Below the pieces are notes generated by a model that worked only from the letters and a program-made list of their open reading frames with translations, was not told the origin of the DNA and did not search any database. A stretch of DNA of 64,000 nucleotides, taken from Propionibacteriaceae bacterium (GTDB taxonomy: Bacteria; Actinomycetota; Actinomycetes; Propionibacteriales; Propionibacteriaceae). The stretch lies in assembly GCA_009782915.1 (NCBI GenBank), contig WRIC01000003.1, positions 15,195 through 79,194 of the forward strand, in the 5' to 3' direction. Position numbers and translations under genes: made by a program. Positions 3,539 through 63,008 of the stretch are shown here, one piece after another (within the stretch, counting starts at the first letter, position 1; every line of letters begins with the position of its first letter).

Positions 3539-4063
3539 ATGAGTATGTCTGCTGATGTTCGCGAATGGAAGAACTGGGTTTCCTTGGTGGCCCGGTTGAT
3601 CCTGGGGGTGGTGCTCGTGTGGGCGGGGTTGTCGAAAATCACCAACCTGGAGGGGTCGGTCCATGCGACCTCGGCGTACCAAATCCTGCCCTATGAGCTC
3701 GCCCGAGTGGTGGGGTACGCTCTACCGTTTATCGAAATCGCCGTGGGAGCCATGCTCATTGTGGGGTTCTTCACCCGTGCGATGGGGTTGATTGGTGCGC
3801 TGATGATGCTTGCTTTTGTGATCGCCATCGCTAGTGTGTGGGCGCGCGGGATCGCCATCGACTGTGGATGCTTCGGTGACGGTGGACCCATCGACCCCGC
3901 TGAAGCCATGGCGAAATACCCCTGGGAGATCGCCCGAGACCTCGGCTTGATGGCGTGCGGAATCTGGCTCACCCTGCGCAAGAAGCAGTTCCTCGCAGTC
4001 GATGGCTGGTTGTTCCGCCCCGTCGAAGAGATCCTGGCCCGCCAAGACCGTCGACACCGCTGA
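3539..4063 (+). CDS. MauE/DoxX family membrane protein (redox-associated)
   Basis: 174-aa ORF with 4 predicted TM segments and the CGCFG motif typical of MauE-like proteins. It lies next to the sulfide-oxidation genes. Confidence 0.7.
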   Translation: MSMSADVREWKNWVSLVARLILGVVLVWAGLSKITNLEGSVHATSAYQILPYELARVVGYALPFIEIAVGAMLIVGFFTRAMGLIGALMMLAFVIAIASVWARGIAIDCGCFGDGGPIDPAEAMAKYPWEIARDLGLMACGIWLTLRKKQFLAVDGWLFRPVEEILARQDRRHR

Positions 4064-4383
4064 GTGTGACCAAAGGGGACGGGGCGTTTGTCACACGCGC
4101 CCGTCACCCTGCGGAGCGAAGCGACTCGCAGGGTCCAGAAACACCAGTTGTATGACTGTGGAGTCTGGGTTCTGCGACTTCGCGCAGAATGACGGGGTAG
4201 GGTTGCGCAGAATGACGGGGTAGGGTTGCGCAGAAAGACAGGGAAGGGATGCCACTCGGCGGTAGTGTGACAAGGTGCCTGTCCCCTTGTCACAGTCCCG
4301 CGCAGGTGTGACAGTTCATACCGTCCCCTTGTCACACTGTCGCACTCACGCAGAGTGGGTCAGTTAGTACCGTCCCCAGTCAC
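4064..4383. repeat. Repeat island containing Family A and Family B units and a tandem array
   Basis: Components by direct reading: a Family-A unit (4064-4095); a Family-B element (4097-4190); a 23-bp tandem array GCGCAGAATGACGGGGTAGGGTT x2.7 (4182-4245); and three Family-A hairpins (4266-4293, 4307-4334, about 4358-4383). Each unit matches copies elsewhere in the window. Confidence 0.9.
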
Positions 4384-8183: not shown

Positions 8184-8294
8184 GCCCCACCTCTGCCACG
8201 CTCACCCACCGTGTCACGCTAATCCACCGTGTCTATTCGCGGAACACACCCAGCCCGTCTTTCCGCGGAGCGGACAGTGAGGCACAACCCCCTC

Positions 8295-8451
8295 GTCACC
8301 CTGCGGAGCACTGCGAGTCGCGCTGGCGCGCTCCGCAGCACCACGACGCAGACCAAGGGCAGGGATGCTTGCATTCATGCCGAGGTCAAGGAAGTGGTTG
8401 ACGAACGAAGTGAGGAACACAGGCTCCGCGACTCGCAGGGTCCAGACTACC
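8295..8451 (+). repeat. Left copy of a 157-bp perfect inverted repeat flanking adk
   Basis: A base-by-base comparison shows 8295-8451 equals the reverse complement of 9356-9512. It is a Family-B long arm interrupted by a roughly 77-bp insert (8342-8418), followed by a Family-B L arm. Confidence 0.95.
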
Positions 8452-8620
8452 CAGTTGTCCCACTGTGGAGTCTGGATTCTGCGACTTCGCGCAGAAAGAC
8501 GGGGTCGGGTGCGCAGAAAGACGGATTGGGGGGTGATAAACGCCGACGGACGGGGGTGTGTTAAATACGCCCACACTCGCAACTGTCATTCTGCGCGAAG
8601 TCGCAGAATCCAGACTCCAC
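8452..8620. repeat. Family-B spacer and R arm, GCGCAGAAAGACGG short tandem, Family-A variant (GTGATAAACGCCGACGGACGG), and a solitary Family-B arm (8585-8620)
   Basis: By direct reading, each unit matches other copies in the window. Confidence 0.8.
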
Positions 8621-8649: not shown

Positions 8650-9213
8650 TCACTTGTGAAGTGAACTGATAATCCGATCATGGACGGTGTCCACATCGCC
8701 GAGACCGTCGACCTCAACGAGGAGACCGCGTTCGCGGTAGAAGGTGAGAAGCGGGGAGGTCTCATGCTCGTACACCTCAATACGGTGGCGCATCGTCTCC
8801 TCGGTGTCATCGGTACGCCCCTCAATGGCAGCCCTCTTCTTCATGCGCTCGGCTAAAGTTGCAGCATCAACCACGAGGGAGATCGCTGCATCCAGTTCCA
8901 TATCGAGCCCCGCAAGGATTTCCTCCAAATCATGGGCCTGGTGGATCGTACGTGGGAAACCATCCAACAGGAACCCTGGTTGAGCATCCGGCTGGGCAAG
9001 TCGGTCAGCGACAAGAGCCTCCACAACCGAATCTGGTACGAGATCACCAGCGTCGATGATCGCTTTCACCTGGAGACCCAACTCGGTTTCGTTAGCAATA
9101 TTCCACCTGAAGAGTGCACCAGTCGAAATCTCTGGGATCCCCAGTTCCTCAGCAACTTTCGTACCCTGTGTTCCCTTCCCGGCGCCCGGAGGACCCATGA
9201 TCAGCAATCTCAC
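8650..9213 (-). CDS. adk: Adenylate kinase, short (zinc-less lid) type
   Basis: 187 aa with P-loop GPPGAGKGT and LLDGFPRT. GTG start with an AAAGGA RBS. It is not embedded in the usual secY-adk-map context. Confidence 0.9.
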   Translation of the reverse strand: MRLLIMGPPGAGKGTQGTKVAEELGIPEISTGALFRWNIANETELGLQVKAIIDAGDLVPDSVVEALVADRLAQPDAQPGFLLDGFPRTIHQAHDLEEILAGLDMELDAAISLVVDAATLAERMKKRAAIEGRTDDTEETMRHRIEVYEHETSPLLTFYRERGLLVEVDGLGDVDTVHDRIISSLHK

Positions 9214-9299: not shown

Positions 9300-9355
9300 G
9301 TCATTCTGCGGAGCGTAGCGACTCGCAGAATCCAGAAACCGCAGTCGGCCAACTA
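9300..9355. repeat. Family-B arm plus spacer adjoining the right inverted-repeat copy
   Basis: GTCATTCTGCGGAGCGTAGCGACTCGCAGAATCCAGA followed by a spacer. Confidence 0.85.
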
Positions 9356-9512
9356 GGTAGTCTGGACCCTGCGAGTCGCGGAGCCTGTGTTCCTCACTTC
9401 GTTCGTCAACCACTTCCTTGACCTCGGCATGAATGCAAGCATCCCTGCCCTTGGTCTGCGTCGTGGTGCTGCGGAGCGCGCCAGCGCGACTCGCAGTGCT
9501 CCGCAGGGTGAC
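9356..9512 (-). repeat. Right copy of the 157-bp perfect inverted repeat flanking adk
   Basis: It is the reverse complement of 8295-8451 with no mismatch over 157 bp, including the same nested insert (9389-9465). Confidence 0.95.
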
Positions 9513-9600: not shown

Positions 9601-10523
9601 GAGTCCAAGGATTCCAGGGGGTTGAGAATGGTGAACATCCAGGTGTCCGCCTCTTCGAAATCACCGTCGCGTACCCCATCGTTGACAACCTGGGGTACCC
9701 GATCGGCGCGAGGGTAGGAACCCAGAAACAGAACCTCACGACACGTACGATGCAGTCCCATGAGCGCTTCCTGAAGTCGGCGCTCAGCAATGTGGCCCTC
9801 AGCATCAATCGAGAAATGATAGTTGCCGATCTTGTCCTTGGTGGGGCGCGACTCGATGCGACACAGATTGATCCCGCGCAAAGAAAACTGCTCCAAAACC
9901 TCCATCAGGCCACCGGGATGATCCTCATTCAAGTGAACAACCAAACTAGTTTTGTCATGGCCGCATGGTGGTTCGGGCGGGAAAGGCCGGGCCACCAAGA
10001 TGAAGCGGGTGACCGCATTCGGGTTGTCAGCGACACCCGAAGCCAGCGCCTTCAACCCATAAAGTTCACCAGCAGCCGAGGAACAAATCGCCGCGTCGTA
10101 GGGCGAATCCAGGTGGGAGACCTGCTCTGCTGCGGCAGCCGTGGACCCCTTCTCGGTGACCTCCGCATCAGGAAGATTCTCGGCCAGCCACTGGCGTACC
10201 TGGGCTGCCGCATGAGGATGGGTGACAATGTGACGTACGTCGTTCATCGAAGTGCCCGGGCGACTGTAGAGCCCGAACACCACAGGAAGCAGAATTTCCG
10301 CACGAATCTGGAGCAGCTCACCAGCCGATAGGGAATCACTAGTAGCCGTGACGATTCCCTCGATCGAGTTTTCGATGGGTACGATCCCGGCCTCCACATG
10401 ACCAGCTCTGACCGCATCCAGGCAGGAGGTCACCGAAGGGAAAGGCTGAGTCTCACTGTCCAACCCCAAGGTCAGCAGGGCCTCATGTGTGAAAGTCCCC
10501 TCGGGACCCAGGTATCCAAGCAT
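9597..10523 (-). CDS. pheA: Prephenate dehydratase
   Basis: 308 aa. N-terminal LGPEGTFTHEA, PDT domain, ESRPTK motif and a C-terminal ACT domain. Confidence 0.9.
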   Translation of the reverse strand: MLGYLGPEGTFTHEALLTLGLDSETQPFPSVTSCLDAVRAGHVEAGIVPIENSIEGIVTATSDSLSAGELLQIRAEILLPVVFGLYSRPGTSMNDVRHIVTHPHAAAQVRQWLAENLPDAEVTEKGSTAAAAEQVSHLDSPYDAAICSSAAGELYGLKALASGVADNPNAVTRFILVARPFPPEPPCGHDKTSLVVHLNEDHPGGLMEVLEQFSLRGINLCRIESRPTKDKIGNYHFSIDAEGHIAERRLQEALMGLHRTCREVLFLGSYPRADRVPQVVNDGVRDGDFEEADTWMFTILNPLESLDS

Positions 10524-10634
10524 CCCCTCACAATACCGACAACTGCTCGCAGCTGCGCGTCATTCTGAAATCTGAGAGTGTTGATCATGCAAGCAGTATG
10601 GGCAACAGAGTTGCAGCATTGGTTACCCACCTTT

Positions 10635-10670
10635 CGTCTTTCTGCGCGAAGTCGCGAATCCAGACTCCAC
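10635..10670. repeat. Solitary Family-B short arm
   Basis: CGTCTTTCTGCGCGAAGTCGCGAATCCAGACTCCAC. Confidence 0.8.
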
Positions 10671-10685
10671 AGGTGCAACTGCCCA

Positions 10686-10800
10686 AAGGGGACGGGGCGT
10701 TTGTCACATTCTGACAACAATTGTTGTTTAGCCAGACGTGTTCCATTGAGTTTCAGGTAGTGATGGGGTGGCGGGAAATGTGACAAACGCCCCGTCCCCA
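10686..10800 (+). mobile_element. Family-C MITE-like element, copy A (about 115 bp, 24-26-bp terminal inverted repeats)
   Basis: The termini are AAGGGGACGGGGCGTTTGTCACATT and AAATGTGACAAACGCCCCGTCCCC. The internal core is GACAACAATTGTTGTT...CAGACGTGTT...GGTGG. It aligns with 47378-47492 and, in reverse orientation, with 60433-60547. Confidence 0.8.
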
Positions 10801-10817
10801 TTTGTCCGTTTGTCACA

Positions 10818-11303
10818 CTACTGGTTGAGGGGTACGTGGAAGGACTCGGTGGCCCGTACTGTTGCTTGGGCGCGCTGGCGTACCTCACCACGGTGATTGA
10901 TGGTCTCGTACTCGATCCCCAGGATGCCCACCTCGGGTTTGGTCTGTGAGCGCCGTTTCGAGGTGATGCGCCCAACAAGACTCAGTCGGTCCCCCGGGCG
11001 TGTGGCGCTCGGCCAGGCAAGAGCAACACCCAACCCGATCGTGTCAGTGAAACCCGCATCACACAACAGTCTCATGGTCATCGCCGCGGTGTGCCACCCC
11101 GAAGCCGACAATCCATGAAACGCGGTCTCCTGAGCGGTGTCATCACCCAGATGCCCCGGCTGCGGATCATAGGTTCGGGCAAAGTCAATGATCTCCTCCG
11201 CAGTCACCTCAATCTCTATCGTTGACCGAAAAGTGTCGCCACCATTGATCGCATCCAACCAATCAGACTCATACATGGTCCTATGGTACGCGCGTAAGCT
11301 CAC
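10818..11303 (-). CDS. MaoC-like (hotdog-fold) dehydratase family protein
   Basis: 161 aa. Size and sequence pattern fit MaoC/hotdog proteins. The call is from memory; no catalytic motif was verified. Confidence 0.6.
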   Translation of the reverse strand: MSLRAYHRTMYESDWLDAINGGDTFRSTIEIEVTAEEIIDFARTYDPQPGHLGDDTAQETAFHGLSASGWHTAAMTMRLLCDAGFTDTIGLGVALAWPSATRPGDRLSLVGRITSKRRSQTKPEVGILGIEYETINHRGEVRQRAQATVRATESFHVPLNQ

Positions 11304-11309
11304 CCGCCC

Positions 11310-11432
11310 CCGTCTTTCTGCGCACTGCGAGTCGCGCTGGCGCGCTCAGCAGCACAGGCTCCGTCGCAGAATCCAATGAACAGTCGACAATTGTCCAGTC
11401 TGATGGGCCCTGCGACTTCGCGCAGGGAGACG
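11310..11432. repeat. Family-B element, long-arm variant
   Basis: The sequence is CGTCTTTCTGCGCACTGCGAGTCGCGCTGGCGCGCTCAGCAGCACAGGCTCCGTCGCAGAATCC, spacer, CCCTGCGACTTCGCGCAGGGAGACGG. Confidence 0.85.
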
Positions 11433-11875: not shown

Positions 11876-13264
11876 ATGCTGGGGACTATGGACATCGAGG
11901 TAGCTCAGTGGTTGGTGTCGGGTGACGCTGAGGAAGCCATCTCCTTCGCCGAGAGTTTCGATGATCCCACCAGCCTGCGTACCGGCGAAAAACTACGCCA
12001 GCTCCTCCCTGCTGACAAGGCTGTTGCCGTACTCGATCTGGTCACTTGTCGCCGACGGGCCGTACCCAAACTCGGTGAGCTCGCCCCCCTGCTCTATCTC
12101 ACCCGGGACTCCCTCGAACAGGCCACCCGCTGGGATGTGGCCCAGTGGAGGGCACGGCGCCTAGTCGAGTACGCGGTGACCAGTGTGACGGACGGCGGAT
12201 GTGGTGTCGGAATCGACTCCCTAGGATTCCTGGCTGCCGGACTCAACGTTATCGCCCTGGAACGCGACCCTGTGTTGGCCACTTTTGCTACCGCGAACCT
12301 GCGCGCTGTTGTGGGGGAGCAATCCACTCAATGGGGACCCACCACAGTTCAGATCGATGGACCCTGCGACGGAGCCTGTGCTGCGGAGCGCGCCAGCGCG
12401 ACTCGCAATGCGCAGGGAGACGACCCACTCCGTCTTTCTGCGCGAAGTCGCAGAATCCAGAAACCACAGTCATGCGGTGATGATGCGGCTCCATCCTTTG
12501 AGGTACGAACTATCGACCTCACCGAGTCAGAGGATTGGATGCCCACCGAGGACCACCACGTGCTATTCCTGGACCCTGCTCGGCGTACTTCGCGGGGACG
12601 CTCCTGGGACATCAAAGACCTAAGTCCCTCGTGGGAGTTTGTTGAATCGATGATCGGACGGGTTCCCGGTGGGGTGGTGGCCAAACTCGCCCCAGGGTTC
12701 CCTCATCACCTGCTCCGCGATGAGGACCACGTCACCTGGGTTTCTCACCACGGCACCTTGGTGGAAACCACACTGTGGGCGGGTCTCGATGTTCCCTCAC
12801 GCCGGGATGTGATCGTGATCACCAAAGGAGCGAAGGGGCTTGGCCCGCAACTGAACACTCTCCACATCGGCGATCACCAGCTTCCCGCCCCTGGTCCTCT
12901 TGGGCAGTACGTCTATGAGCCTGATCCTGCGATCATTCGTGCTGGTGGAATCCCGGATATTGCCCAGCTCACCTCTAGTCATCCTGTCGCTGAATCCATC
13001 GCGTACCTCACCAGCGACCTTCTGATCCCAACCCCCTTTGCCACTGCTTTCCGGGTGATCGAGGTTTTCCCCTATAGCGAGAAGGCCCTCAAGTCGTGGG
13101 TACGCTCCACCAAGATCGGCACCTTGGAGATTAAGGTACGCGGACTCGGCATCGACCCCGCTGAGCTTCGCCCCCGCCTCAAACTCGCAGGCAAAACCCA
13201 GGCCACCATCATCCTCACCCCCACCATCCATGGCCCGCAGAACCTGGTAGTTGAGCGACTATAA
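11876..13264 (+). CDS. Class I SAM-dependent methyltransferase with a THUMP-like C-terminal region, carrying a repeat-derived in-frame insert
   Basis: 462-aa continuous ORF with SAM motif I DGGCGVGIDS. The C-terminal half resembles THUMP-like-domain methyltransferases. The call is from memory. Confidence 0.7.
   Translation: MLGTMDIEVAQWLVSGDAEEAISFAESFDDPTSLRTGEKLRQLLPADKAVAVLDLVTCRRRAVPKLGELAPLLYLTRDSLEQATRWDVAQWRARRLVEYAVTSVTDGGCGVGIDSLGFLAAGLNVIALERDPVLATFATANLRAVVGEQSTQWGPTTVQIDGPCDGACAAERASATRNAQGDDPLRLSARSRRIQKPQSCGDDAAPSFEVRTIDLTESEDWMPTEDHHVLFLDPARRTSRGRSWDIKDLSPSWEFVESMIGRVPGGVVAKLAPGFPHHLLRDEDHVTWVSHHGTLVETTLWAGLDVPSRRDVIVITKGAKGLGPQLNTLHIGDHQLPAPGPLGQYVYEPDPAIIRAGGIPDIAQLTSSHPVAESIAYLTSDLLIPTPFATAFRVIEVFPYSEKALKSWVRSTKIGTLEIKVRGLGIDPAELRPRLKLAGKTQATIILTPTIHGPQNLVVERL
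12358..12470 (+). repeat. Family-B element (long arm plus short arm) lying in frame inside the methyltransferase ORF
   Basis: The DNA reads GGACCCTGCGACGGAGCCTGTGCTGCGGAGCGCGCCAGCGCGACTCGCAATGCGCAGGGAGACG...CGTCTTTCTGCGCGAAGTCGCAGAATCCAGAAACC. It is translated as GPCDGACAAERASATRNAQGDDPLRLSARSRRIQKPQ. Confidence 0.9.
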
Positions 13265-13265
13265 C

Positions 13266-13288
13266 AAAGGGGACGGGGCGTTTGTCAC
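13266..13288. repeat. Family-A unit AAAGGGGACGGGGCGTTTGTCAC between two convergent genes
   Basis: It contains the cydDC stop codon (complement of 13285-13287). Confidence 0.9.
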
Positions 13289-16200
13289 ATGGTGAGTACG
13301 CGATCGCAGCGCGCTGCTACGGACTCATCGTGGGAGATAACCAGGATGGGGCGCTGATCTACACCAGCGAATAGTTCATCCATGAGGGCATCGGCGGTTT
13401 CACGATCCAGGTGTTCGGTTGGTTCATCGAGGATCAGCAAACGATAGTCACCCACGAACAGCCGCGCGAGAGCCAGGCGGCGAGCCTCCCCACCCGACAG
13501 GCCCACACCCATTTCACCTGTTTGACGGTCCAACGGAATATCTAAACCAGCCTCCACCAAAGCCGCGCGTACCTCATCTTCGGAAGCATCCTTATTCCCG
13601 ATGCGAACATTCTCAGAAATCGTGGTGGAGAAAATGTGGGCATCCTGCGCAAGATAACCGATCCGGCCCGCAGTCACCAGCTCACCATCCACCACAGGAA
13701 TCAACCCCATGATTGTCGCCGCCAATGTGGTCTTGCCCACACCGGAGGGACCCATCACACCCACAGCTTCACCGGCACGAAGACTCAACTCCAACCCATC
13801 AGCAACACGGTCAAAACCAGGCCACCCAATCGCGAGCCCCTTCGCCACCAGGGACGGCTCCTCGCTCGCATCGCGCACCTGAACATCCCCGATCCCGATC
13901 GGCGGCGCATCAATAATCGACGTCACGCGCAACAGAGATGCCTTCGCCCGAGTCCAGGTTTGGGCGGCTTGAGCGAAGTTCGCAAACACCTCATGCAACG
14001 CTAAGGGTACGAGCACCATCACCGCGAGCATTGTCTCCCCCAAAGACCCGTTAACCACACCCACAGCACCAATAATCAGACCACCCAGGACGCCAATCCC
14101 CGAAGCCAACACCTGCAACCCTGCGCCGATCCCCTTGGCCCACGCTGACTTTTCCTCAACATCAACAAGCGCCTGATCCACCGCGTCCATCCGCTCAATG
14201 GCCTGCCCGCGCGCTCCATAGGCAGCCAGGTCAATCGCATTACGCGACAGGTCATGAACCACCACACCCAGGTCGCCACGCAGGGGTACGGCTCGTTCAT
14301 CATCGCGCAGGGACACCCGCTGGGTCAGCCAGGGGACGAGCAGACCACCCCCGATAGCTGACACCAACACGGCCACAGCAACACCTGGGGAGAACACAGC
14401 CAACATCGCGCACACACCTAGGACCACCACACCAGCCGACAGGAAGGGCTGCACGATGCGGACAATCACATCCTCGATACCATTCACATCAGCCACCACC
14501 CGTACCAACAAATCACCCTGCTTGCGGCCCAACAACGTGGTTTTCGCCAGAGCTTGGTAGGTCTTCAACCGAAGGGCCGACTGCATGGACAGGGCAACCG
14601 AGTGTCCCACCAGGCGCTCCACGTACCGGAAAACCCCACGCGAGATACCAAAGAACCGCACCCCCACCGCAGCCACAGCCAGCGCCTCAAACAGCGGATG
14701 CTGGGCGGCACGCGACAACATCCACGCCGAGGTACCCATCAGCGCAATCGTTGCCCCCGAGGCTAGCGCACTGAGCAGGATCGCCAACGCGAGACGACCC
14801 TTCGCACCGGGCACGGCATTCAGCAGGCGGTACACCAACCTCAGCAAAGGGGAACCTTTCGCCAGGAGAGAGGGTACGGGTTTCTCTTCATCTTCAACCA
14901 GTACGGGCGGGCGCTTCTCACCCGTGGCGTCTCCGGTGTTGTCTTGTGAAGTCTCCTGGGTTTCTTCGGGTTCCTCACTTTCATCAGAAACCGTAGCTTC
15001 CACCAACTCTCCAGTTTTATCCGGCTTCTCCAAGCTTCCAGCTGTCTCCAGTTCCTCCGCTTCCATGGCGGTTTCACCAACGACCTCTCCCCCAGTTTCG
15101 TCAGCCAGTGCTGGCAATGATTCCACGTCGCGTGGGTTGATTTCGACGACACGATCAGCTTCCTGCAGTACGGCCGATCTGTGCGACACCACGAGTGCTG
15201 TGGCACCCGAGTCGCGCACACTGCTGAGCACCTTCGCCTCCGTATCAGTGTCCAACCCTGCTGTTGGCTCATCCAGGATCAAAAAGCGAGCCGTACCATA
15301 ATTGATTCGGGCCAGGGCGCGGGCAATACCCACCCGGCGACGCTCCCCCACTGAGAGCCCCTCCCCTTCTTCCCCGACTTCACGGGAGGGTTCCAGGTTT
15401 CCAGCCCCCGCTAAACCTAGAACCTCGCGTACCTGCTCTTCGGTGGCTTGCCGATAACCCAGGCGTACGTTATCGGCAATCGTGCCATCGAGCATTCCGG
15501 GGATCTGCGGGACATAAGCGATCGTTTCACGCCACCTGTCCAGATCGAGTACACGGGCGTCCACACCACCCAAGGTCAGCGCCACATCCTCAGTTTCACT
15601 GGGGGTGAGGAAACCCAGGATGCAGTTCACGACAGTGGTCTTACCGCCACCGGATTTCCCGGCGAGGGCAACAATCTCACCAGGGTTGACCTCAAGGGTG
15701 AAGGGTCCCACGGTGGTGCCCGTCTGCGGGTAGGTGTACGCGAGGTTGTTGATCACCACCGAGGGTGGGTAGTTGTCATCCCCCGTCTTTCTGCGGGAGG
15801 TCGCAGAATCAATAAGCACACTGGGTAGCGAGATAGTATCTGGACCCTGCGAGTCGCTTCGCTCCGCAGGGTGACGGGAGGGGGGGGCATCATCCGCAGG
15901 GAGACGGGGAGGGAGTGCACCGTCCGCAGTAAGACGGGGAGGGAGTGCACCGTCCGCAGGGTGACTAGGTTCGGGGACACCGGCGCGGTCGATTTCTTTG
16001 AAAGCCGCCTCAGCGGCAGCCAATCCGTGGGCGGAGTCGTGATAATGGACACCCACTTGGCGAATGGGCAGATAAACCTCGGGGGCGAGAACAAGAACGA
16101 ACAATGCGGCATAGAAATCCACCTGCCCGTAGAGCAGGCGCGTACCAATCACTAAAGCGATCACCGCCACAGCCAGTGTGGCGAATAATTCCAAGGTGAA

Positions 16201-16983
16201 GGCCGACAGAAAAGCCATACGCAGGATCCCTAGGGTTTCACGGCGGTTGGCATGTTCGGTACGTTTCAGACCTTGGGCTTGAGCCTTGGCACGACCAAAC
16301 ACCTGAAGGGTGGGTAATCCCGAGATGAGGTCTGCGAAATGGTTGGCGAGACGGGCCTGAAAAGCCCACCTGGTAGCAATCTTTTTCTCAGTGTTTTTCC
16401 CGATCAGAATCATGAGGATAGGAATGAACGGAATGGTCACAGCAATGATCGCTGCAGAGAGCAGGTCATTGGTCACCACAGCAACCAGGAGAATGACCGG
16501 TACGGTTGCGGCCAGCAACAGTTGGGGAAGATATTTAGAGAAATACCCATCAAGGGCATCCAACCCTTGAGTCACCAGGTTAACCAGGTTCGACGAGGAG
16601 GATGTCTGATGCGCGGGATGATCCAAGCGGGCAGCAAGAATATCCCTGCGCAACTGGGATTTCACAGCAGCAGAGGTACGCTGGGCGAGCCACGCGGACA
16701 ACCAGGCGAGAATCCCACGACCAACCAAAACAAGGATCAACAACCCCACAGCCAACGCAACACCCTCCATGGTGTGGGAGGCAAACACATCGGTCACAGA
16801 CCGCGAGATCAGATGGGCTTGACAAAGGATCAGTACGGCAGTCAGGCATCCCACCACCACACCAGAGATGAGATACCCCTTGGTTGCTGAGGCTCGCCTA
16901 ATCAGCCGAGGATCAATCGGACCACGCCCGCGCTGCTTCTCGGTCGAGGGTTGGGTTTCAGTTTCTGCCATGTCATCCTTCAC
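13285..16983 (-). CDS. cydDC: Fused CydD-CydC thiol-reductant ABC exporter (two TMD-NBD halves in one 1232-aa polypeptide)
   Basis: Walker A motifs GKSGGGKTT and GPSGVGKTT; signatures LSVGERRR and LSGGEARR; Walker B LILDEPT in both halves. An acidic linker of about 70 aa joins the halves. It sits downstream of cydAB. Confidence 0.85.
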   Translation of the reverse strand: MKDDMAETETQPSTEKQRGRGPIDPRLIRRASATKGYLISGVVVGCLTAVLILCQAHLISRSVTDVFASHTMEGVALAVGLLILVLVGRGILAWLSAWLAQRTSAAVKSQLRRDILAARLDHPAHQTSSSSNLVNLVTQGLDALDGYFSKYLPQLLLAATVPVILLVAVVTNDLLSAAIIAVTIPFIPILMILIGKNTEKKIATRWAFQARLANHFADLISGLPTLQVFGRAKAQAQGLKRTEHANRRETLGILRMAFLSAFTLELFATLAVAVIALVIGTRLLYGQVDFYAALFVLVLAPEVYLPIRQVGVHYHDSAHGLAAAEAAFKEIDRAGVPEPSHPADGALPPRLTADGALPPRLPADDAPPSRHPAERSDSQGPDTISLPSVLIDSATSRRKTGDDNYPPSVVINNLAYTYPQTGTTVGPFTLEVNPGEIVALAGKSGGGKTTVVNCILGFLTPSETEDVALTLGGVDARVLDLDRWRETIAYVPQIPGMLDGTIADNVRLGYRQATEEQVREVLGLAGAGNLEPSREVGEEGEGLSVGERRRVGIARALARINYGTARFLILDEPTAGLDTDTEAKVLSSVRDSGATALVVSHRSAVLQEADRVVEINPRDVESLPALADETGGEVVGETAMEAEELETAGSLEKPDKTGELVEATVSDESEEPEETQETSQDNTGDATGEKRPPVLVEDEEKPVPSLLAKGSPLLRLVYRLLNAVPGAKGRLALAILLSALASGATIALMGTSAWMLSRAAQHPLFEALAVAAVGVRFFGISRGVFRYVERLVGHSVALSMQSALRLKTYQALAKTTLLGRKQGDLLVRVVADVNGIEDVIVRIVQPFLSAGVVVLGVCAMLAVFSPGVAVAVLVSAIGGGLLVPWLTQRVSLRDDERAVPLRGDLGVVVHDLSRNAIDLAAYGARGQAIERMDAVDQALVDVEEKSAWAKGIGAGLQVLASGIGVLGGLIIGAVGVVNGSLGETMLAVMVLVPLALHEVFANFAQAAQTWTRAKASLLRVTSIIDAPPIGIGDVQVRDASEEPSLVAKGLAIGWPGFDRVADGLELSLRAGEAVGVMGPSGVGKTTLAATIMGLIPVVDGELVTAGRIGYLAQDAHIFSTTISENVRIGNKDASEDEVRAALVEAGLDIPLDRQTGEMGVGLSGGEARRLALARLFVGDYRLLILDEPTEHLDRETADALMDELFAGVDQRPILVISHDESVAARCDRVLTM
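15781..15965 (-). repeat. Family-B element plus a 30-nt tandem array lying in frame inside the CydD half
   Basis: The coding strand reads ...CTGCGGACGGTGCACTCCCTCCCCGTCTTA x2.5, then GTCACCCTGCGGAGCGAAGCGACTCGCAGGGTCCAGA, spacer, GATTCTGCGACCTCCCGCAGAAAGACGG. It is translated as ADGALPPRLTADGALPPRLPADDAPPSRHPAERSDSQGPDTISLPSVLIDSATSRRKTG. Confidence 0.9.
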
Positions 16984-18395: not shown

Positions 18396-19871
18396 TCAGT
18401 ACGCGAAGGAGAGCTCTTCGCCCTCATCCTTGATGGAAACCTTTTCAGCGGCTGGCAGACCCATCTTGATGTACTTGAGCAACAGGCCGACCTCAACTAC
18501 TGCGAGGAGACCATAGATTGCGGTGTACAACACCAGGGACAACCAGACGGGACCCGTACCCACAGTGGGGGAAAGGCCTTGAAGTGTTGGCATAACGCCG
18601 TTGACGATCCAGGGCTGACGACCCATCTCGGTGAAAATCCAACCGAAAGAGTTCGCAAGCAACGGAAGCACAGGCATGCAGATAGCCAAGCAGGTCCAGA
18701 ACCAACCGGGGTTTGGAACCTTGCCACCGCGTGTGACAACGAGCATCACGATGCCGCCCAGCATAGCTAGGAAGCCAATACCCATCATCAAGCGGAAGCT
18801 CCAGAAGGAAACACCCACGCTGGGGACCATGTTAGCTTCAGCCAACGACCCTTGGATAGCGGAATAGGAGGTGGTTTGTAGAGACGAACCTTCCACCCAT
18901 TCGCCAGCCTTACGATCAAAGAACCGATAGCCGTTGGGGCCAATCTGATTTGCTTTGACATCGTCAATGGTTTGAATGTTCTTCGTACCATAGAGCCAGT
19001 TCAGCAAACCTGGGAATACTTCAGCCTTGGGAACGATCTGGAAGCCAACCTTGGCAGAGTCAGCGAGTGGCTCTTTCAGGTTTTCAGCGGCAGCCATCTT
19101 CATGGGCTGGTGTGTCACCAGCTGCTTTCCGAGGAAGTCGCCAGTCACGATGGTGAAAACGCCAGCGATGACGAGAACCCATGCGCCCATCTTGAGGCCC
19201 TTGCGGTACGCGGTCAAGTCACCCTTGGGTGCCTTCTCCTTGGAATTCTTGACCAAGAGATAGAAAGCAGCACCAGCCATGAAACCACCAGCTGTCACGA
19301 AGGACGCTGCGATGGTGTGTGGCCACTGGGTGAGGAAGGCCGGGTTCAAGATCACCTGAAGGAGGCTATCCAGCTCTGCGCGCTGGGTGGCCGGGTTGTA
19401 GCTTGCACCCGTGGGGTTCTGCATCCACGCATTAGCTGCGACGATGAAGATTGATGAAATGAAGGTACCAATCGCGCCAAGCCAAATGGTGACGAGGTGG
19501 GCCTTCTTGGACAAGCGATCCCACCCGAAGATCCACATTCCAAGGAAGGTGGATTCGAGGAAGAACGCGATAAGGGCTTCAAGGGCGAGAGGAGCACCGA
19601 AGATGTCCCCGACGAAGCGGGAATACTCCGACCAGTTCATACCGAACTGGAACTCCTGCACGATACCCGTGACAACCCCCATTGCGAAGTTAATCAGAAA
19701 CAAACGTCCAAAGAACTTCGTCAAACGCAAATAGGCATCATTGCCTGTTTTGTTCCAGATGGTCTGTAGCACCGCGGTCAACACACTCAATGCGATCGTG
19801 AGAGGCACGAACAAGAAGTGGTAGACCGTTGTGATGCCAAACTGCCACCTGGCAATGGTATCCGGACTCAT
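18396..19871 (-). CDS. cydA: Cytochrome bd oxidase subunit I (proximal copy)
   Basis: 491 aa with WQFGITTVYHF (haem ligand His), WPHT, a Q-loop and GWIFTEMGRQPW. Confidence 0.9.
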   Translation of the reverse strand: MSPDTIARWQFGITTVYHFLFVPLTIALSVLTAVLQTIWNKTGNDAYLRLTKFFGRLFLINFAMGVVTGIVQEFQFGMNWSEYSRFVGDIFGAPLALEALIAFFLESTFLGMWIFGWDRLSKKAHLVTIWLGAIGTFISSIFIVAANAWMQNPTGASYNPATQRAELDSLLQVILNPAFLTQWPHTIAASFVTAGGFMAGAAFYLLVKNSKEKAPKGDLTAYRKGLKMGAWVLVIAGVFTIVTGDFLGKQLVTHQPMKMAAAENLKEPLADSAKVGFQIVPKAEVFPGLLNWLYGTKNIQTIDDVKANQIGPNGYRFFDRKAGEWVEGSSLQTTSYSAIQGSLAEANMVPSVGVSFWSFRLMMGIGFLAMLGGIVMLVVTRGGKVPNPGWFWTCLAICMPVLPLLANSFGWIFTEMGRQPWIVNGVMPTLQGLSPTVGTGPVWLSLVLYTAIYGLLAVVEVGLLLKYIKMGLPAAEKVSIKDEGEELSFAY

Positions 19872-20033
19872 AGCGGAAAACTTATCGTTTTCTCCAAGCT
19901 AATGCAATTCACCTGTCCTTATTAATGAACAGGCTTGCGAAGATAACTTTCATCCTGTAGTGCATGGCTTGGACACCGATGACATCTTCTCAACGGTGCT
20001 GATGTTTCTTTGGAGGGTACGAGTTGGGCCTTT

Positions 20034-21542
20034 TTAGTACGCAAAGGAGAGCTCATCATCGTCATTTTTGATGGTGATCTCTTCAGCTTCTGGTAAACCC
20101 ATCTTGATGTATTTCAGCAACAAACCAACCTCGACCACTGCGAGCACCCCATACAAGACAGTGAACCCGATCAGTGTGAACAGTGCAGGGCCTGTCCCCA
20201 CAAACGGAGAGTGGCCTTCAGCGGTGGTCATGACACCGTTGACGATCCAGGGTTGGCGTACCATTTCTGTAAAAATCCATCCGAAGGAATTACCCAGCAG
20301 CGGGAACAGCGGCAGTGCGAGACACACCAGTGTCCACAGCTTGCGAGGTTGAGGTATCTTTTTTCTGTCTGTGGCAACCAGGAGGAGGATTCCACCCACA
20401 CCGGCCAGGAAACCTAGTCCCATCATCAAACGGAAACTCCAGAAGGCGACTGGAACATTGGGTGCAATGGAGTAGGAGTCCGGAACATGATCGTTGACCC
20501 CATAGTTCAGATAGAGCACACTGCTTTCTCCGTACTGCAAAGGTGTTCCTTCGATCCATCTCCCATTAGGAGAGGTACGGTCCCAGTGATGATACCCCTG
20601 AGTGTCCACTTGGTATGTCAGGATTGTTTCCATATCTGGGGCGATCATTGTTCCATAAAGTACGTTGATCAGTCCCGGGAAAACCTCAACACCCGGAATG
20701 ATCTGGAAACCAACCTCCCCGCCTTTGCCCACATACTCAGGGGACAACAGGTTTTCTGCTGCCGCCATTTTGATGGGTTGGCTGACCACCATTTCTTTGC
20801 CCAACAAATCACCAGTGATGACAGTGAGCACCCCGGAGACGATCAGAATCCAGGAACCAAACCGCAGCCCCGTACGATAGGCACTCACATCATCTGCAGG
20901 GGCCTTGTCGCGGGCTTTGGTGACGAAGAGGTAGAAAGCTATCCCAGCCATAAAACCACTACCCACCATCATGGAGGTGGCGATGGTGTGAGGCCATTGG
21001 GTGAGGAACACCGGGTTGGCGATGACTTCGGTGAAGCTATCCAAGGTGGCACGATTCTGCTCAGGATCATAATGTGCCCCGGTGGGATTTTGCATCCATG
21101 CATTAGCGGCAACAATAAAGATTGATGAAATAACCGTACCCATCGCTGCAATCCAGATGGACAACAGATGAACCCTCTTCGACAAACGGTCCCACCCGAA
21201 GATCCATATCCCCAAGAAAGTGGATTCGAGGAAGAACGCAATCAGAGCTTCCAGGGCCAGTGGAGCGCCGAAGATGTCCCCCACAAAACGGGAATACTCC
21301 GACCAGCCCATGCCGAATTGAAACTCCTGCACGATGCCTGTGACAACCCCCATAGCGAAGTTGATCAAAAACAGACGCCCAAAGAACCTGGTTAACCGCA
21401 AGTAGGCATCTTTGTCTGTGTTGTACCACAGGCTCTGCAACACCGCTGTGAGCACACTCATAGATATGGTCAGAGGTACGAACAGGTAGTGGTAAACCGT
21501 GGTGATGCCAAACTGCCAGCGAGCAAGACTATCCGGACTCAT
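20034..21542 (-). CDS. cydA: Cytochrome bd oxidase subunit I paralog (distal copy) with no cognate cydB of its own
   Basis: 502 aa. It has a very similar N-terminal 260 aa and C-terminal region to 18396..19871 but a divergent, longer Q-loop segment. It carries its own related leader sequence. Confidence 0.85.
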   Translation of the reverse strand: MSPDSLARWQFGITTVYHYLFVPLTISMSVLTAVLQSLWYNTDKDAYLRLTRFFGRLFLINFAMGVVTGIVQEFQFGMGWSEYSRFVGDIFGAPLALEALIAFFLESTFLGIWIFGWDRLSKRVHLLSIWIAAMGTVISSIFIVAANAWMQNPTGAHYDPEQNRATLDSFTEVIANPVFLTQWPHTIATSMMVGSGFMAGIAFYLFVTKARDKAPADDVSAYRTGLRFGSWILIVSGVLTVITGDLLGKEMVVSQPIKMAAAENLLSPEYVGKGGEVGFQIIPGVEVFPGLINVLYGTMIAPDMETILTYQVDTQGYHHWDRTSPNGRWIEGTPLQYGESSVLYLNYGVNDHVPDSYSIAPNVPVAFWSFRLMMGLGFLAGVGGILLLVATDRKKIPQPRKLWTLVCLALPLFPLLGNSFGWIFTEMVRQPWIVNGVMTTAEGHSPFVGTGPALFTLIGFTVLYGVLAVVEVGLLLKYIKMGLPEAEEITIKNDDDELSFAY

Positions 21543-28896: not shown

Positions 28897-29080
28897 TCGT
28901 CATTCTGCGGAGCACTGCGAGTCGCGCTGGTGCGCTCCACAGCACAGGCTCCGCGACTCGCAGAATCCAGAAACCATGACTCACCTCCGTCATTCTGCGG
29001 AGCGCAGCGACTCGCAGAATCCAGAATCCACAGTCGCATTAATGTGATTTCTGGACCCTGCGACTTCGCGCAGGGTGACG
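28897..29080. repeat. Family-B long arm plus a complete bipartite Family-B element
   Basis: The sequence is GTCATTCTGCGGAGCACTGCGAGTCGCGCTGGTGCGCTCCACAGCACAGGCTCCGCGACTCGCAGAATCCAGA, then GTCATTCTGCGGAGCGCAGCGACTCGCAGAATCCAGA, spacer, TCTGGACCCTGCGACTTCGCGCAGGGTGACG. Confidence 0.9.
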
Positions 29081-35602: not shown

Positions 35603-36424
35603 TCAGAAACCGTTGAAATCTTGGGGTTCGGCGCAGATCTTCGTACCTGTGGCAAGAGCATCAATGGCGACGAGGTCACCACAGGAGAGTTCCAGCTTTT
35701 CGGCATCAAGGTTTTCTTTGATGCGTACGGGGTTGGCTGACTTGGGTAGCGGAATGAAACCGTTGGCGAGATGCCAGGCGAGAACCACTTGGGCTGGCGT
35801 GGCCTCCAGGCGTACTGCTATCTCGTTGAGCGCCGGATCATCAAGATAATGTCCGCGACCCAGTGGGGCATAACTCTCGGTGAGGGTTCCCTGGTCGGTG
35901 TTCGCTTGAGCAACCGCGGTGTTAGGGAAACCCGGATGGAGCTCGACCTGGTTGATTGCGGGTACGACACCAGAGCCAGCGATAGCTTGAAGGTGGTCGG
36001 GGTTGAAATTGGAGACACCAATGGACTTGGTCAAACCCTTGTTGCGCAGTGTGATGAGAGTGTCCCAGGCCTTCTGATAGAGACCCAGACCAGGGGCGGG
36101 CCAATGAATCAGGTAGAGATCCACATAGTCGAGATTGAGCTTCATCAGTGAGGTGGCCAGAGCAGCTTCGGGGTCATGGAGATCATCAGTCCAGGTTTTC
36201 GTGGTAACGAAGATGTCGTCACGATCCAGCCCACACGACTTCAGCCCCTTGCCGACACCCACCTCATTCTCATAGATCGTCGCCGTGTCGATATGTCGAT
36301 AACCAACTTCGATTGCTTGGATCACCAGTGCTTCCGCTTCTACGTCACTGACCCTCCACGTGCCATACCCCATCGACGGGATCTCGTACCCATCATTCAT
36401 GACACTCATCAACTCAGACATCAC
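35603..36424 (-). CDS. Aldo/keto reductase (2,5-diketo-D-gluconate reductase-like)
   Basis: 273 aa with GYRHIDTA and IHWP motifs. Confidence 0.85.
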   Translation of the reverse strand: MMSELMSVMNDGYEIPSMGYGTWRVSDVEAEALVIQAIEVGYRHIDTATIYENEVGVGKGLKSCGLDRDDIFVTTKTWTDDLHDPEAALATSLMKLNLDYVDLYLIHWPAPGLGLYQKAWDTLITLRNKGLTKSIGVSNFNPDHLQAIAGSGVVPAINQVELHPGFPNTAVAQANTDQGTLTESYAPLGRGHYLDDPALNEIAVRLEATPAQVVLAWHLANGFIPLPKSANPVRIKENLDAEKLELSCGDLVAIDALATGTKICAEPQDFNGF

Positions 36425-36470
36425 GTCTCCCTTCCATCAGCCAGTGTACTCCCGCAGGTCCCCATCCAGA

Positions 36471-36795
36471 GTCGTCTCCCTGCGCGAAGTCGCAGGCGTC
36501 CAGACGACCACAAGGGACGTACCTTTTGTGCTGTCTCGTTGGGTTTGCATCTATCCGTCCTTCAAGATTCCGTCGACAACACAAAAGGTACGTCCCTTGC
36601 GGTCCAGTCGTCTCGGTAGCCACCCTCTCCGTCATTCCGCGGAGCGAAGCGACTCGCAGAATCCAGACCCAAGAGTCGAACAACTGCGTAGTCTGGGCCC
36701 TGCGAGTCGCTTCGCTCCGCAGGGTGACGTTGACGCGTGACAAACGCCCCGTCCCCTTTTGATATTTGATAGTGACAAACGCCCCGTCCCCTTTT
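36471..36795. repeat. Repeat island upstream of cbiMQO containing Family A and Family B units and a 20-bp inverted repeat
   Basis: Components by direct reading: a Family-B short arm (36471-36505); a perfect 20-bp inverted repeat with a 49-nt spacer (36511-36530 and 36580-36599); a complete Family-B element in reverse orientation (36631-36728); and two Family-A units (36737-36759, 36772-36795). Confidence 0.9.
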
Positions 36796-36887
36796 GATAG
36801 TCCCCTTTTGATATGGTCACCGCCGCTTCTACACGGGCCCACTGTTAGACTGGGGTGCGTTGCGCTTTGACGCTGAAAGGCACTCCC

Positions 36888-37904
36888 ATGCACATGACTG
36901 ACGCTCTGGTTTCACCAGCAGTGGGGCTTGCCATGGATGTGGTTGCGGGGGCGGTGATCGCCGGTACGGTGGCACGAATCAAGAAGGACCAATTCGCCGA
37001 CAAAAAGGTGCCACTGATGGGGGTTGCGGGGGCACTCATCTTCGCTGGGCAGATGATCAACTTCGCTATACCGGGTACGGGTTCCTCGGGGCATATTGGG
37101 GGTGGAATCCTGCTGGCTGCACTCGTGGGTGCTGTGCCTGCCTTCCTCACGATGACGGTTGTCCTCACGATCCAGTGCCTCTTCTTTGCTGATGGTGGTC
37201 TGCTCGCACTGGGATGCAATATCTTCAACCTGGGGGTCATCCCCTGCCTGATCATTTTCCCTCTACTTGTTGCCCCGATTTTTTCAGGAGGTACGAGCCG
37301 TACCCGCCTCACTGTGGGCTCACTTCTGGGAGTGATCCTGTCCCTCCAACTGGGCGCCCTGGGTGTGGTCCTCCAAACCCTCTTCTCCGGGATCGTGGAA
37401 CTCCCGTTCACTGTATTCCTCGCCACCATGCTGCCCATCCACCTGGTCATCGGTGTCATCGAAGGGATCATCACCGCCGCAGTCCTCAGTTTCGTGTACG
37501 CCATGCGCCCTGAACTCCTGGGTACAGCCACGCCGCAGAACACTCCCCCATCGTCGAAGAAACTCCTCATCACATTAGCAACCGCCACGGTTATCATTGC
37601 CGGGGGTCTCACCTGGTTCGCCTCCACTAACCCCGATGGTTTGGAGTGGGCCATCAGCCGTACCACCGAAAAAACCGGAACCCAGGAACCTGAGGGAGCC
37701 ACCGGAATCCACCAGGGGGCCGATGATGCCCAAAACACCACGGCGGGCTTCCCGGATTATTCCCTGCCCGGCAATCCGGACAATCCCGCGGGCGCACCTA
37801 TCAGTGGTCTCGTGGGCGCAGGGCTCACCTTCCTGGTTGCAGCCGGTTCAGGGTTGGTGATCTCGCGAATCAAGAAACGCGGGCGGGTCACAGTCGATGC
37901 CTGA
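36888..37904 (+). CDS. cbiM: ECF-type metal (Co/Ni) transporter substrate-capture component CbiM/NikM fused to a PDGLE (CbiN-like) domain
   Basis: N-terminal MHMTDALVSP (compare the MHIPDG consensus), GSSGHIGG, and a C-terminal TNPDGLEW motif plus TM segment. I chose the start at the ATG at 36888 with a GAAAGG RBS. Confidence 0.8.
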   Translation: MHMTDALVSPAVGLAMDVVAGAVIAGTVARIKKDQFADKKVPLMGVAGALIFAGQMINFAIPGTGSSGHIGGGILLAALVGAVPAFLTMTVVLTIQCLFFADGGLLALGCNIFNLGVIPCLIIFPLLVAPIFSGGTSRTRLTVGSLLGVILSLQLGALGVVLQTLFSGIVELPFTVFLATMLPIHLVIGVIEGIITAAVLSFVYAMRPELLGTATPQNTPPSSKKLLITLATATVIIAGGLTWFASTNPDGLEWAISRTTEKTGTQEPEGATGIHQGADDAQNTTAGFPDYSLPGNPDNPAGAPISGLVGAGLTFLVAAGSGLVISRIKKRGRVTVDA

Positions 37905-43131: not shown

Positions 43132-43480
43132 CCCTGCGACTTCGCGCAGGGAGACGGGGTCAGGTCAGCACAAACGAGGTTAGGTCAGCACAGACCGGGT
43201 TGAGTCAACACCGACCGGGTTGAGTCAACACCGACCGGGTTGGGTGTCTCCCTGCGCTCTCTTTCCCCGTCACCCTGCGGAGCGAAGCGACTCGCAGGGT
43301 CCAGACACCACATTGATACGACGATACCCCCGTCACCCTGCGCGAAGTCGCAGGGTCCAGAAACCACATTGATACGACGATGGAGTCTGGATTCTGCGAG
43401 TCGCTTCGCTCCGCAGAATGACGGTGGTGAGTGTGCTCCGCAGAATGACGGTGGTGAGTGTGCTCCCTAGAATGACGGTG
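43132..43480. repeat. Repeat island containing Family-B arms, a tandem array and tandem half-arms
   Basis: Components by direct reading: a Family-B short arm (43132-43158); a tandem array with a period of about 20 bp, GACCGGGTTGAGTCAACACC-like, x4.5 (43158-43248); and a Family-B compound element with two L arms, one R arm and tandem GCTCCGCAGAATGACGGTGGTGAGTGT half-arms (43268-43480). Confidence 0.9.
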
Positions 43481-47377: not shown

Positions 47378-47492
47378 AAGGGGACGGGGCGTTTGTCACA
47401 TTCAGACAACAACTGTTGTTCTACCAGACGTGTTTCATCGTTTAGGGTAGTGACAGGGTGGAGAGAAATGTGACAAACGCCCCGTCCCCTTT
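47378..47492 (+). mobile_element. Family-C MITE-like element, copy B
   Basis: It has the same TIRs and core as copy A, with roughly three-quarters internal identity by eye. It begins immediately after the ATG of the ABC ATPase ORF. Confidence 0.8.
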
Positions 47493-47500
47493 GGGTAGGG

Positions 47501-47567
47501 TAGACAAACGCCCCGTCCCCTTTTAGCGTGACAAACGCCCCGTCCCCTTTTAGCGGGCGTTTGTCAC
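47501..47567. repeat. Three further Family-A half-units; the last contains the pepN stop codon
   Basis: TAGACAAACGCCCCGTCCCCTTTT, GTGACAAACGCCCCGTCCCCTTTT and GCGGGCGTTTGTCAC. Confidence 0.9.
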
Positions 47568-62906: not shown

Positions 62907-62940
62907 CGGAGGGCACTCTACCCAAGTGTCACCTCCACCG

Positions 62941-63008
62941 CCTCCCTGCGCACTGCGAGTCGCCCTAGCGGGCTCCGCAGCACAGGCTCCGTCGCAGGGT
63001 CCAGATAT
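62941..63008. repeat. Family-B long arm
   Basis: CCTCCCTGCGCACTGCGAGTCGCCCTAGCGGGCTCCGCAGCACAGGCTCCGTCGCAGGGTCCAGA. Confidence 0.85.

Follow-up and report, generated by a model that had tools for sequence, protein, structure and literature searches.

A dimer of CGTC-tagged REP elements, probably inserted in frame into the loop-encoding part of a Propionibacteriaceae methyltransferase gene

A stretch of 64,000 nucleotides from a Propionibacteriaceae metagenome-assembled genome (MAG; assembly GCA_009782915.1, contig WRIC01000003.1, G+C content 56%), referred to here as the window, was analyzed around a conserved gene for a predicted S-adenosylmethionine (SAM)-dependent methyltransferase whose reading frame runs through a copy of a dispersed palindromic repeat. 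The reading that best fits the data, to which we give a probability of roughly 0.85, is that a dimer of CGTC-tagged repetitive extragenic palindromic (REP) elements was inserted in frame into the part of this gene that encodes a surface loop. The parts of the in-gene copy were 91 to 100% identical to intergenic copies, so the copy is young enough for such identity.

RESULTS

An open methyltransferase frame containing a repeat dimer

A single open reading frame (ORF), 11876..13264 on the plus strand, encodes 462 amino acids and remains open across the repeat, as had been reported in an earlier interpretation made from the DNA letters without database searches (the sequence-only reading). The true start of the gene is probably the ATG at 11888, which would give a gene of 11888..13264 and a protein of 458 amino acids, because the orthologs and an NCBI protein begin at the fifth codon of the ORF. 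The N termini of the orthologs read MD(I/V)EVA, and the NCBI protein, FWG08_01415 from a Propionibacteriaceae MAG (458 amino acids), is 100% identical to the window protein. A split gene was considered and rejected because one uninterrupted ORF spans both halves.

When compared with other copies, the repeat-like sequence was found to begin abruptly at 12358 and to fade at about 12473, giving an insert of ∼114 to 116 nt, or 38 codons. The encoded peptide, GPCDGACAAERASATRNAQGDDPLRLSARSRRIQKPQ, occupies residues 162 to 198 (nucleotides 12359 to 12469) and is the one that the sequence-only reading had given. The insert is composed of two REP arms separated by a short spacer (Table 1). On the minus strand the long arm reads CGTC-TCC-CTGCG-(42-nt structured loop)-CGCAG-GGT-CCA; in the gene it is translated as GPCDGACAAERASATRNAQGD, and the short arm is translated as RLSARSRRIQ. 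Beyond the short arm lies the start of a spacer that is conserved in the family, and alignments of this region to other copies reached 12471 to 12473 and at most 12484. Both arms carry the CGTC tag. Because the two tags face inward, the copy is a tail-to-tail (TT) dimer under the TT and head-to-head (HH) definitions of PMC3733652, and this is the rarer type. The first stem pair of the methyltransferase copy is a T-T mismatch (TCC/GGT and TTT/AAT), a minor subvariant seen in 17 arms. An 8-nt direct repeat, ACCACAGT, was present on both sides of the insert; its right copy is part of the conserved family spacer, and if the two copies were taken as the boundaries, the insert would measure 122 nt and be out of frame.

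The dimer is palindromic overall. The predicted RNA fold of the 171-nt region had an energy of −68 kcal/mol (z = −2.5 versus shuffles), with the tag-proximal halves pairing as a central stem of 13 bp, two of them G-U, and with an outer stem of TGGA..CTGCGAC/GTCGCAG..TCCA. Folding of the insert region with DNA parameters gave a nonsignificant z of −1.4 versus shuffles.

Both arms recur elsewhere in the window. Positions 12358 to 12422 are 92% complementary to 62939 to 63003 and 91% complementary to 11311 to 11375, with further matches at 28912 to 28969, 8293 to 8341, and 9466 to 9512, and positions 12430 to 12461 are 100% identical to 8471 to 8502 on the minus strand. The intergenic long arms that the sequence-only reading had placed near 11310 to 11432, 28897 to 28970, and 62941 to 63008 were all recovered, at identities of 91, 84, and 92%, respectively. 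The short arm is also 92 to 98% identical to copies in the related Propionibacteriaceae MAG WRIJ01. For the 64-nt search pattern, 0.00 matches were expected by chance. In total, the window contains 14 arm clusters that make up 4.5% of its bases, and a large share of the intergenic DNA is taken up by the repeat family. Most clusters are inverted dimers with their CGTC ends facing outward and a spacer of 20 to 26 nt.

Orthologs lack the repeat block

The methyltransferase was compared with a set of 1,523 homologs, and 20 sequences were aligned. Orthology was confirmed by the conserved gene order, since adk-pheA-MaoC-GNAT-methyltransferase-(SIMPL)-cydDC-cydBA recurs in loci L076 to L080. The typical length of the family is 377 to 390 amino acids, compared to 458 for the window protein. 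None of the 19 orthologs in the 20-sequence alignment contained the repeat block, and most of them have no residues at the site. In the nearest ortholog, P0002 (58% identical), the loop is ∼55 residues shorter, and in its locus the intergenic regions are short and hold no repeat copy. The check by ortholog alignment that the sequence-only reading had proposed therefore came out in favor of an insertion, with a repeat-free locus lacking the residues in question. On this comparative evidence, the repeat appears to be a lineage-specific in-frame insertion in an intact gene.

Among the other orthologs, the same loop contains from 0 to ∼45 extra residues. An extra loop of P0003 at the same site was considered as a decayed copy of the repeat, and this was rejected, its local alignment score being no better than that of shuffles (P = 0.73). 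An origin of the repeat from the methyltransferase gene itself was also rejected, because the repeat family is spread across phyla.

Insertions in cydDC and in a sister lineage

The immediate neighbor of the methyltransferase gene, a fused cydDC gene, contains a second in-frame REP insertion (Table 1). This insert of ∼51 residues is located in the CydD half, within the linker that joins the membrane domain to the ATPase domain, and the block is missing from all three syntenic orthologs (69 to 72% identical). The claim of two in-frame occurrences within 64 kb was thereby upheld. The label "Family-B," which the sequence-only reading had also applied to the cydDC insert, is inapplicable there because that insert has no long arm. 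For the same reason, its statement that the long arm is read differently in the two genes holds only in part: a difference in orientation and frame does exist, but for the short arm, which is the sole part common to both genes (RLSARSRRIQ in the methyltransferase and LDSATSRRKT in cydDC).

A third insertion was found in a sister Propionibacteriaceae lineage, in which the orthologous methyltransferase, P0008 (508 amino acids), carries an in-frame insert of ∼85 residues in a loop other than that of the window protein. The insert was located at 10790 to 11119 of locus L078 and also at 5872 to 6201 of L079, which are separate contigs assembled independently from ENA and JGI data. Four repeat clusters between genes of the same locus match the DNA of the insert at 75 to 96% identity, and the repeat unit of the insert, GGTCATCCTGCC-GAAG-GCAGGACCC, is a GGTC-tagged palindrome with the same tag-stem layout. 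A related repeat has thus entered a different loop of the orthologous gene independently in the sister lineage. Three independent coding insertions were found at one syntenic locus in the two Propionibacteriaceae lineages compared.

The two loops of the methyltransferase seem to be general hot spots of length variation in the family. Low-complexity or repetitive inserts of their own were observed in the same two loops of P0011 (TDPT-rich tracts) and of P0007 and P0009 (PTES-type repeats).

Since the source is a MAG and an abundant repeat is a typical source of assembly error, a repeat copy might have been stitched into the gene, or two contigs might have been joined via a shared repeat. Such an artifact is hardly credible. 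The sequences on either side of the repeat are parts of one orthologous gene, in conserved order and in the same frame, and the sister lineage, assembled independently, shows a comparable insert on two separate contigs of different origin. Moreover, the copy differs by 8 to 9% from every other long arm of the window and is therefore not a duplicated read path.

Table 1. Coordinates of the host gene, the inserted repeat, and related features in the window
Feature	Position	Strand	Description
Methyltransferase host gene	11888..13264	+	Class I SAM-dependent methyltransferase with C-terminal THUMP-like domain; basis: ORF, PF18096, orthologs, and model
Long-loop CGTC-tagged REP arm	12358..12422	−	65 nt; 91 to 92% identical to 11311-11375 and 62939-63003
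Spacer	12423..12430		8 nt, ACCCACTC; separates the two inward-facing CGTC tags
Short CGTC-tagged REP arm	12431..12461	+	31 nt; CGTC-TTT-CTGCG-CGAAGT-CGCAG-AAT-CCAGA
Start of conserved spacer	12462..12473	+	AACCACAGTCAT; normally 3′ of the CCAGA tail in intergenic head-to-head dimers
Intergenic head-to-head dimer	11311..11432	+	Long arm 11311-11375, 26-nt spacer, inverted short arm; between MaoC-like and GNAT genes
Intergenic long arm	62939..63003	+	Nearest relative of the methyltransferase copy, 92% identical
Intergenic long arm	28912..28969	+	84% identical to the methyltransferase copy
Fused cydDC gene	13285..16983	−	1,232 amino acids versus 1,156 to 1,173 in syntenic orthologs; immediate neighbor of the methyltransferase gene
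In-frame REP insertion in cydDC	15781..15970	−	Three partial heads, 40-nt arm, spacer, and inverted short arm

The host protein and the predicted position of the insert

The window protein combines a Rossmann-fold methyltransferase domain bearing a GxGxG motif with a C-terminal THUMP-like domain (PF18096, residues 389 to 450, E = 9e-20), the arrangement of the PG_1098 (3ll7) type. The AlphaFold model of the protein had a predicted local distance difference test score (pLDDT) of 87 and a predicted template modeling score (pTM) of 0.82. Its top structural match was 3ll7 (E = 1.8e-20), which was also matched at the sequence level, and the next was the methyltransferase domain of TGS1. Residues 150 to 201 were the sole segment of the model with a pLDDT below 50 and had no secondary structure; they are preceded by a helix (132 to 148) and followed by a strand (208 to 212). 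The sequence-only reading had placed the insert between a Rossmann-type N-terminal half and a C-terminal half. This placement needs correction: in the model, the low-confidence segment lies between that helix and that strand, and the insert is predicted to be a disordered surface loop inside the Rossmann fold and not a connection between domains.

All 73 invariant columns of the 20-ortholog alignment are kept in the window protein, on both sides of the insert. They include D106, G108, C109, G110, and G112 of the SAM-binding motif and D233, P234, R236, and R237 of the DPxRR motif. The 264 codons 3′ of the insert stay open.

Alternatively, the insertion could have inactivated the gene, which would then either have been disabled too recently for stop codons to accumulate or encode a nonworking protein. 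In favor of this, the catalytic Rossmann domain is the part that was interrupted, and the family evolves fast, with 51 to 58% identity among syntenic orthologs versus ∼70% for cydDC. Nonetheless, inactivation is very improbable given the intact invariant positions with both motifs, the open downstream frame, the confidence of the model outside the loop, and the variable length of this loop in other orthologs. The cydDC insert furthermore repeats the pattern in a much more conserved gene.

Definition and distribution of the repeat family

Arm statistics were obtained from 166 arms. The unpaired tag is CGTC in 86 arms and TGTC in 59. The stem has the form A-N-N-CTGCG/CGCAG-N′-N′-T, with four fully complementary variants accounting for 127 arms. 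The triplets flanking the stem core covary (ATC/GAT in 47 arms, ATT/AAT in 47, ACC/GGT in 29, and ATG/CAT in 4), and since these outer positions change in complementary pairs, they provide direct sequence evidence for selection on the hairpin. The tail CCAGA(A/T/C/G) was found in 127 arms. Loops were of 6 nt in 105 arms, 13 to 16 nt in 34, and 27 to 48 nt in ∼20, the last class including the long arm of the methyltransferase copy. Judged by these features, the repeat is likely to be a member of the CGTC-tagged REP superfamily; it fits the superfamily layout, yet it appears to belong to none of the four described CGTC families.

An exact 24-nt core of the short arm, CTGCGCGAAGTCGCAGRRTCCAGA, was detected as a multicopy sequence; at least 71 stretches contained it, and they came from at least 20 genomes and at least 7 phyla, compared to ∼0.02 matches expected by chance in 596 Gb by our own arithmetic. 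The genomes were labeled as Propionibacteriaceae, Coriobacteriia, Ruaniaceae, Burkholderiales and other Betaproteobacteria, Pseudomonas, Alcanivorax, Desulfuromonadales/Pelovirga/Geobacteraceae, Riflebacteria, Oligoflexia, Binatia, and Marinamargulisbacteria, together with lake MAGs labeled "Rickettsia typhi." The broader labels included Actinomycetota, Pseudomonadota, Desulfobacterota, Riflebacteria, Oligoflexia, Binatia, and Margulisbacteria. Two of the carriers, Pelovirga terrestris M08fum and Ruaniaceae bacterium KH17, are assemblies without a MAG label. The flanks of the 24-nt copies showed the same architecture everywhere, with head-to-head dimers across phyla. No match to the core was found in 2.9 million viral contigs, a blastn search of a plasmid collection with a 181-nt repeat array (43260 to 43440) gave no match, and a literature search for the exact DNA strings of the arms found none.

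Rarity of copies in genes and absence of stop codons

Although long ORFs cover ∼87% of the window, 12 of the 14 repeat clusters are intergenic, and the other 2 are in genes. Among the matches listed, none of 82 exact copies in the 71 loci of other genomes was inside a credible gene, and the ∼26 clusters in the loci of MAG WRIJ01 likewise included none in genes. Six repeat-spanning open frames in the WRIJ01 loci were rejected as genes, as all look like noncoding read-through. A long repeat-spanning frame in a Riflebacteria locus was also rejected as an intragenic copy, being an upstream extension of a racemase-type gene.

Both arms are free of stops in all six frames, which is weakly unusual for their composition (P = 0.11 and 0.06). 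The sister long arms have 1 to 2 stops, and the cydDC cluster has 10, as expected. Because four of the six frames of the inserted region (12357 to 12480) are open, retention of the ORF was not improbable, and roughly one in five insertions would retain it by chance.

The sequence-only reading had proposed either strong filtering for frame-preserving insertions or an element evolved to be translatable. The data favor the former, namely, rare insertions that kept the frame and survived in loops able to accommodate them, because gene-borne copies are rare and the frame of the short arm differs between the two genes. Under selection for translation, of the element or of this particular copy, the arms would have been shaped to stay open in every frame, and the arginine-rich peptide RLSARSRRIQKPQ or the mRNA hairpin would confer something new on an RNA-type methyltransferase, for example, binding to RNA, translational pausing, or altered mRNA stability. 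Beyond the stop-free arms, the 114-nt copy as a whole has no stops in six frames where 5.6 were expected (P = 0.0016, mononucleotide shuffle), with the caveat that the palindrome makes the six frames nonindependent. Two neighboring genes have in-frame copies, with a third in the sister-lineage ortholog; 7 residues of the insert are basic, and the THUMP-like domain of the host is of a type that usually goes with RNA binding; and the predicted RNA fold beats shuffled controls. We nevertheless regard this explanation as improbable. Each of the two genes reads the same short arm in its own frame, and the orientations are opposite. The insertion sites are nonhomologous, and the arm types differ. 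The per-arm lack of stops reaches only P = 0.06 to 0.11, and stops do occur, in other frames, in the sister copies and the cydDC cluster. In addition to the rarity of in-gene copies, the insert is predicted to be disordered, and the orthologs function without it.

Other repeats and genes in the window

The adenylate kinase gene (8650..9213, minus strand) is flanked by a 190-nt inverted repeat of 97% identity (8295 to 8484 and 9323 to 9512), which consists of REP arrays with partial long arms. Such a repeat around an essential gene could favor inversion or hairpin formation. REP arrays are G+C rich and stop poor and therefore generate spurious ORFs of 150 to 220 amino acids, found here at 3691..4335, 10472..10978, and 36414..36893 (all on the minus strand) and overlapping real genes or intergenic regions.

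An unrelated 23-nt repeat, AAGGGGACGGGGCGTTTGTCACA, has ∼19 copies in the window, one of which lies 3 nt past the methyltransferase stop codon. Its orientation tracks transcription. Sense copies were found at 4073, 7880, 10686, 13267, 27866, 27888, 47378, 60394, and 60433, most of them 3 to 56 nt past the stops of plus-strand genes, and antisense copies were found at 7929, 10782, 17121, 17153, 36739, 36774, 47472 to 47530, and 60527, most of them just downstream of minus-strand genes. It looks like a 3′-end or terminator-associated motif.

Three similar tandem genes are located on the minus strand at 795 to 3130 with a spacing of ∼1,115 to 1,175 nt. Two adjacent ORFs of ∼490 to 500 amino acids (18396 to 21542) share 72 to 82% nucleotide identity; we presume them to be cydA-like from their size and their position next to cydDC. 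A search of the whole window against Rfam at gathering thresholds returned one tRNA and nothing else.

DISCUSSION

We propose that the repeat spread through a mechanism recognizing single-stranded hairpins, which may have been provided in trans by an enzyme such as a REP-associated tyrosine transposase (RAYT)-like protein, or else through recombination between copies. Nearly all insertions into genes would have been purged by selection. The copy in the methyltransferase gene may have survived through the joint effect of a length of ∼114 nt (38 codons) that kept the frame, the absence of stops in the frame used, and a tolerant loop. The added peptide would most likely be a neutral passenger, and the element is predicted to be still capable of forming a strong hairpin in the mRNA.

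Several observations weigh against this explanation. Neither the window nor ∼0.5 Mb of related loci yielded a mobilizing enzyme: the only families that Pfam assigned to ten ORFs flanked by repeats were housekeeping ones (MauE/DoxX, adk, and others), and a phmmer search of the ORFs of the window and the 71 loci with an E. coli RayT query gave no match. All-against-all clustering of the ORFs of the 71 loci revealed no transposase and, as a common element, a type I restriction-like gene block in four genomes. An empty-site allele from a close strain was not obtained, a metagenome scan with the methyltransferase giving relatives of at most 38% identity and an exact look-up of protein P0001 matching no contig. 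Of the 55 extra residues in the loop, ∼17 have no recognizable repeat origin. The loops of 6, 13 to 16, and ∼40 nt exceed the 4 to 5 nt of the four described CGTC families, and the freedom of the 114-nt copy from stops in six frames exceeds what selection in a single frame would need. With respect to the enzyme, the literature itself disagrees on what mobilizes CGTC REPs: Di Nocera et al. found no dedicated transposase for them (PMC3733652), while Bertels and Rainey assign the Neisseria elements to a Group 2 RAYT (10.1101/2021.07.10.451892).

The closest known system is the CGTC-tagged REP superfamily (Di Nocera, De Gregorio & Rocco 2013, BMC Genomics 14:522; PMC3733652), which is defined by a CGTC or TGTC tag, with CCTC as a further permitted variant, an 8- to 9-bp stem starting with A-T, and a CCA tail, with a predominance of head-to-head dimers and no adjacent transposase. 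The repeat described here shares the unpaired CGTC/TGTC tag, an 8-bp stem with A-T first, and the CCA tail. It is likewise mostly extragenic with occasional in-frame copies in genes, head-to-head dimers with conserved spacers predominate, and no transposase gene was seen beside the copies in the loci searched. It differs from the CGTC families of that study in its stem core (CTGCG/CGCAG), in the loop lengths given above, in the commonness of clusters, which are rare in those families, and in its hosts, which include Actinomycetota, Riflebacteria, and Desulfobacterota and so extend beyond the five phyla listed in 2013 (PMC3733652). The same study tabulated in-frame intragenic REP dimers encoding 20 to 38 residues (more for clusters) in hosts that include RNA methyltransferases, and its authors proposed that a location in linkers or loops makes these inserts neutral. 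That table lists none of the peptides that the arms of the window encode (PMC3733652).

The palindromes of Rickettsia (Rickettsia palindromic elements [RPEs]; Ogata et al. 2000, 2002) are similarly found in frame in unrelated housekeeping genes, including those of RNA methyltransferases, at sites compatible with the fold. In some RPE families, nearly half of the copies are inside ORFs, whereas here they are a small minority. RPE-1 encodes a conserved peptide, whereas the frame varies here, and the present host, a Propionibacteriaceae MAG that may come from a termite gut to judge by the MAG names, bears no mark of an obligate intracellular alphaproteobacterium such as Rickettsia. CGTC-1 corresponds to the Neisseria dRS3 element, and CGTC-1 and CGTC-4 correspond to RPE-6 and RPE-4 of Rickettsia (PMC3733652). 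With the Neisseria dRS3 elements and their REP doublets forming hairpins (REPINs), the repeat shares the tag-stem-tail layout, the inverted doublets, and the large clusters, but it has a different stem core. The stem ends ATTC...GAAT of the present repeat are presumably the same as those of CGTC-1, as the listed peptides SFPRKRES and LDSRFRGND suggest. The dRS3 element is best known as an integration target and not as a coding insert. The GTAG-tagged REP sequences and bacterial interspersed mosaic elements (BIMEs) of E. coli and the REPINs of Pseudomonas resemble the repeat in their short alternating hairpins, mosaic arrays, and heterodimers of differing loop length, as well as in G-U pairs that suggest a role at the RNA level. 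However, those elements have a GT[AG]G tag and a cognate RAYT flanked by REPs, neither of which was seen here; in place of the GT[AG]G guide tetranucleotide of REPIN-RAYT systems, the tag is CGTC/TGTC.

In-frame REP insertion is therefore already known from Rickettsia and other bacteria (PMC3733652; in-frame REP and RPE insertions are reviewed in PMC10969869), and what is new here is the example and not the phenomenon. A bolder interpretation, which we consider doubtful, is that the repeat represents an undescribed and currently active branch of CGTC REPs that has moved between phyla and owes its uniformity to a conserved enzyme or host factor acting in trans. It would then be an ongoing source of protein loops in the two Propionibacteriaceae lineages.

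The finding extends the in-frame REP "decoration" of proteins, seen mainly in Rickettsia and a few Proteobacteria, to the Actinomycetota. It also carries a warning for annotation, in that long ORFs in REP-rich MAGs may hold repeat-derived segments and repeat arrays spawn spurious ORFs and false proteins. To our knowledge, no dedicated transposase is known for CGTC-type REPs, and the fact that the hairpin core is identical across phyla is relevant to what mobilizes them. Finally, the presence of two related repeats in different loops of one gene in sister lineages amounts to a natural experiment on the tolerance of loops for ∼40 to 85 extra residues.

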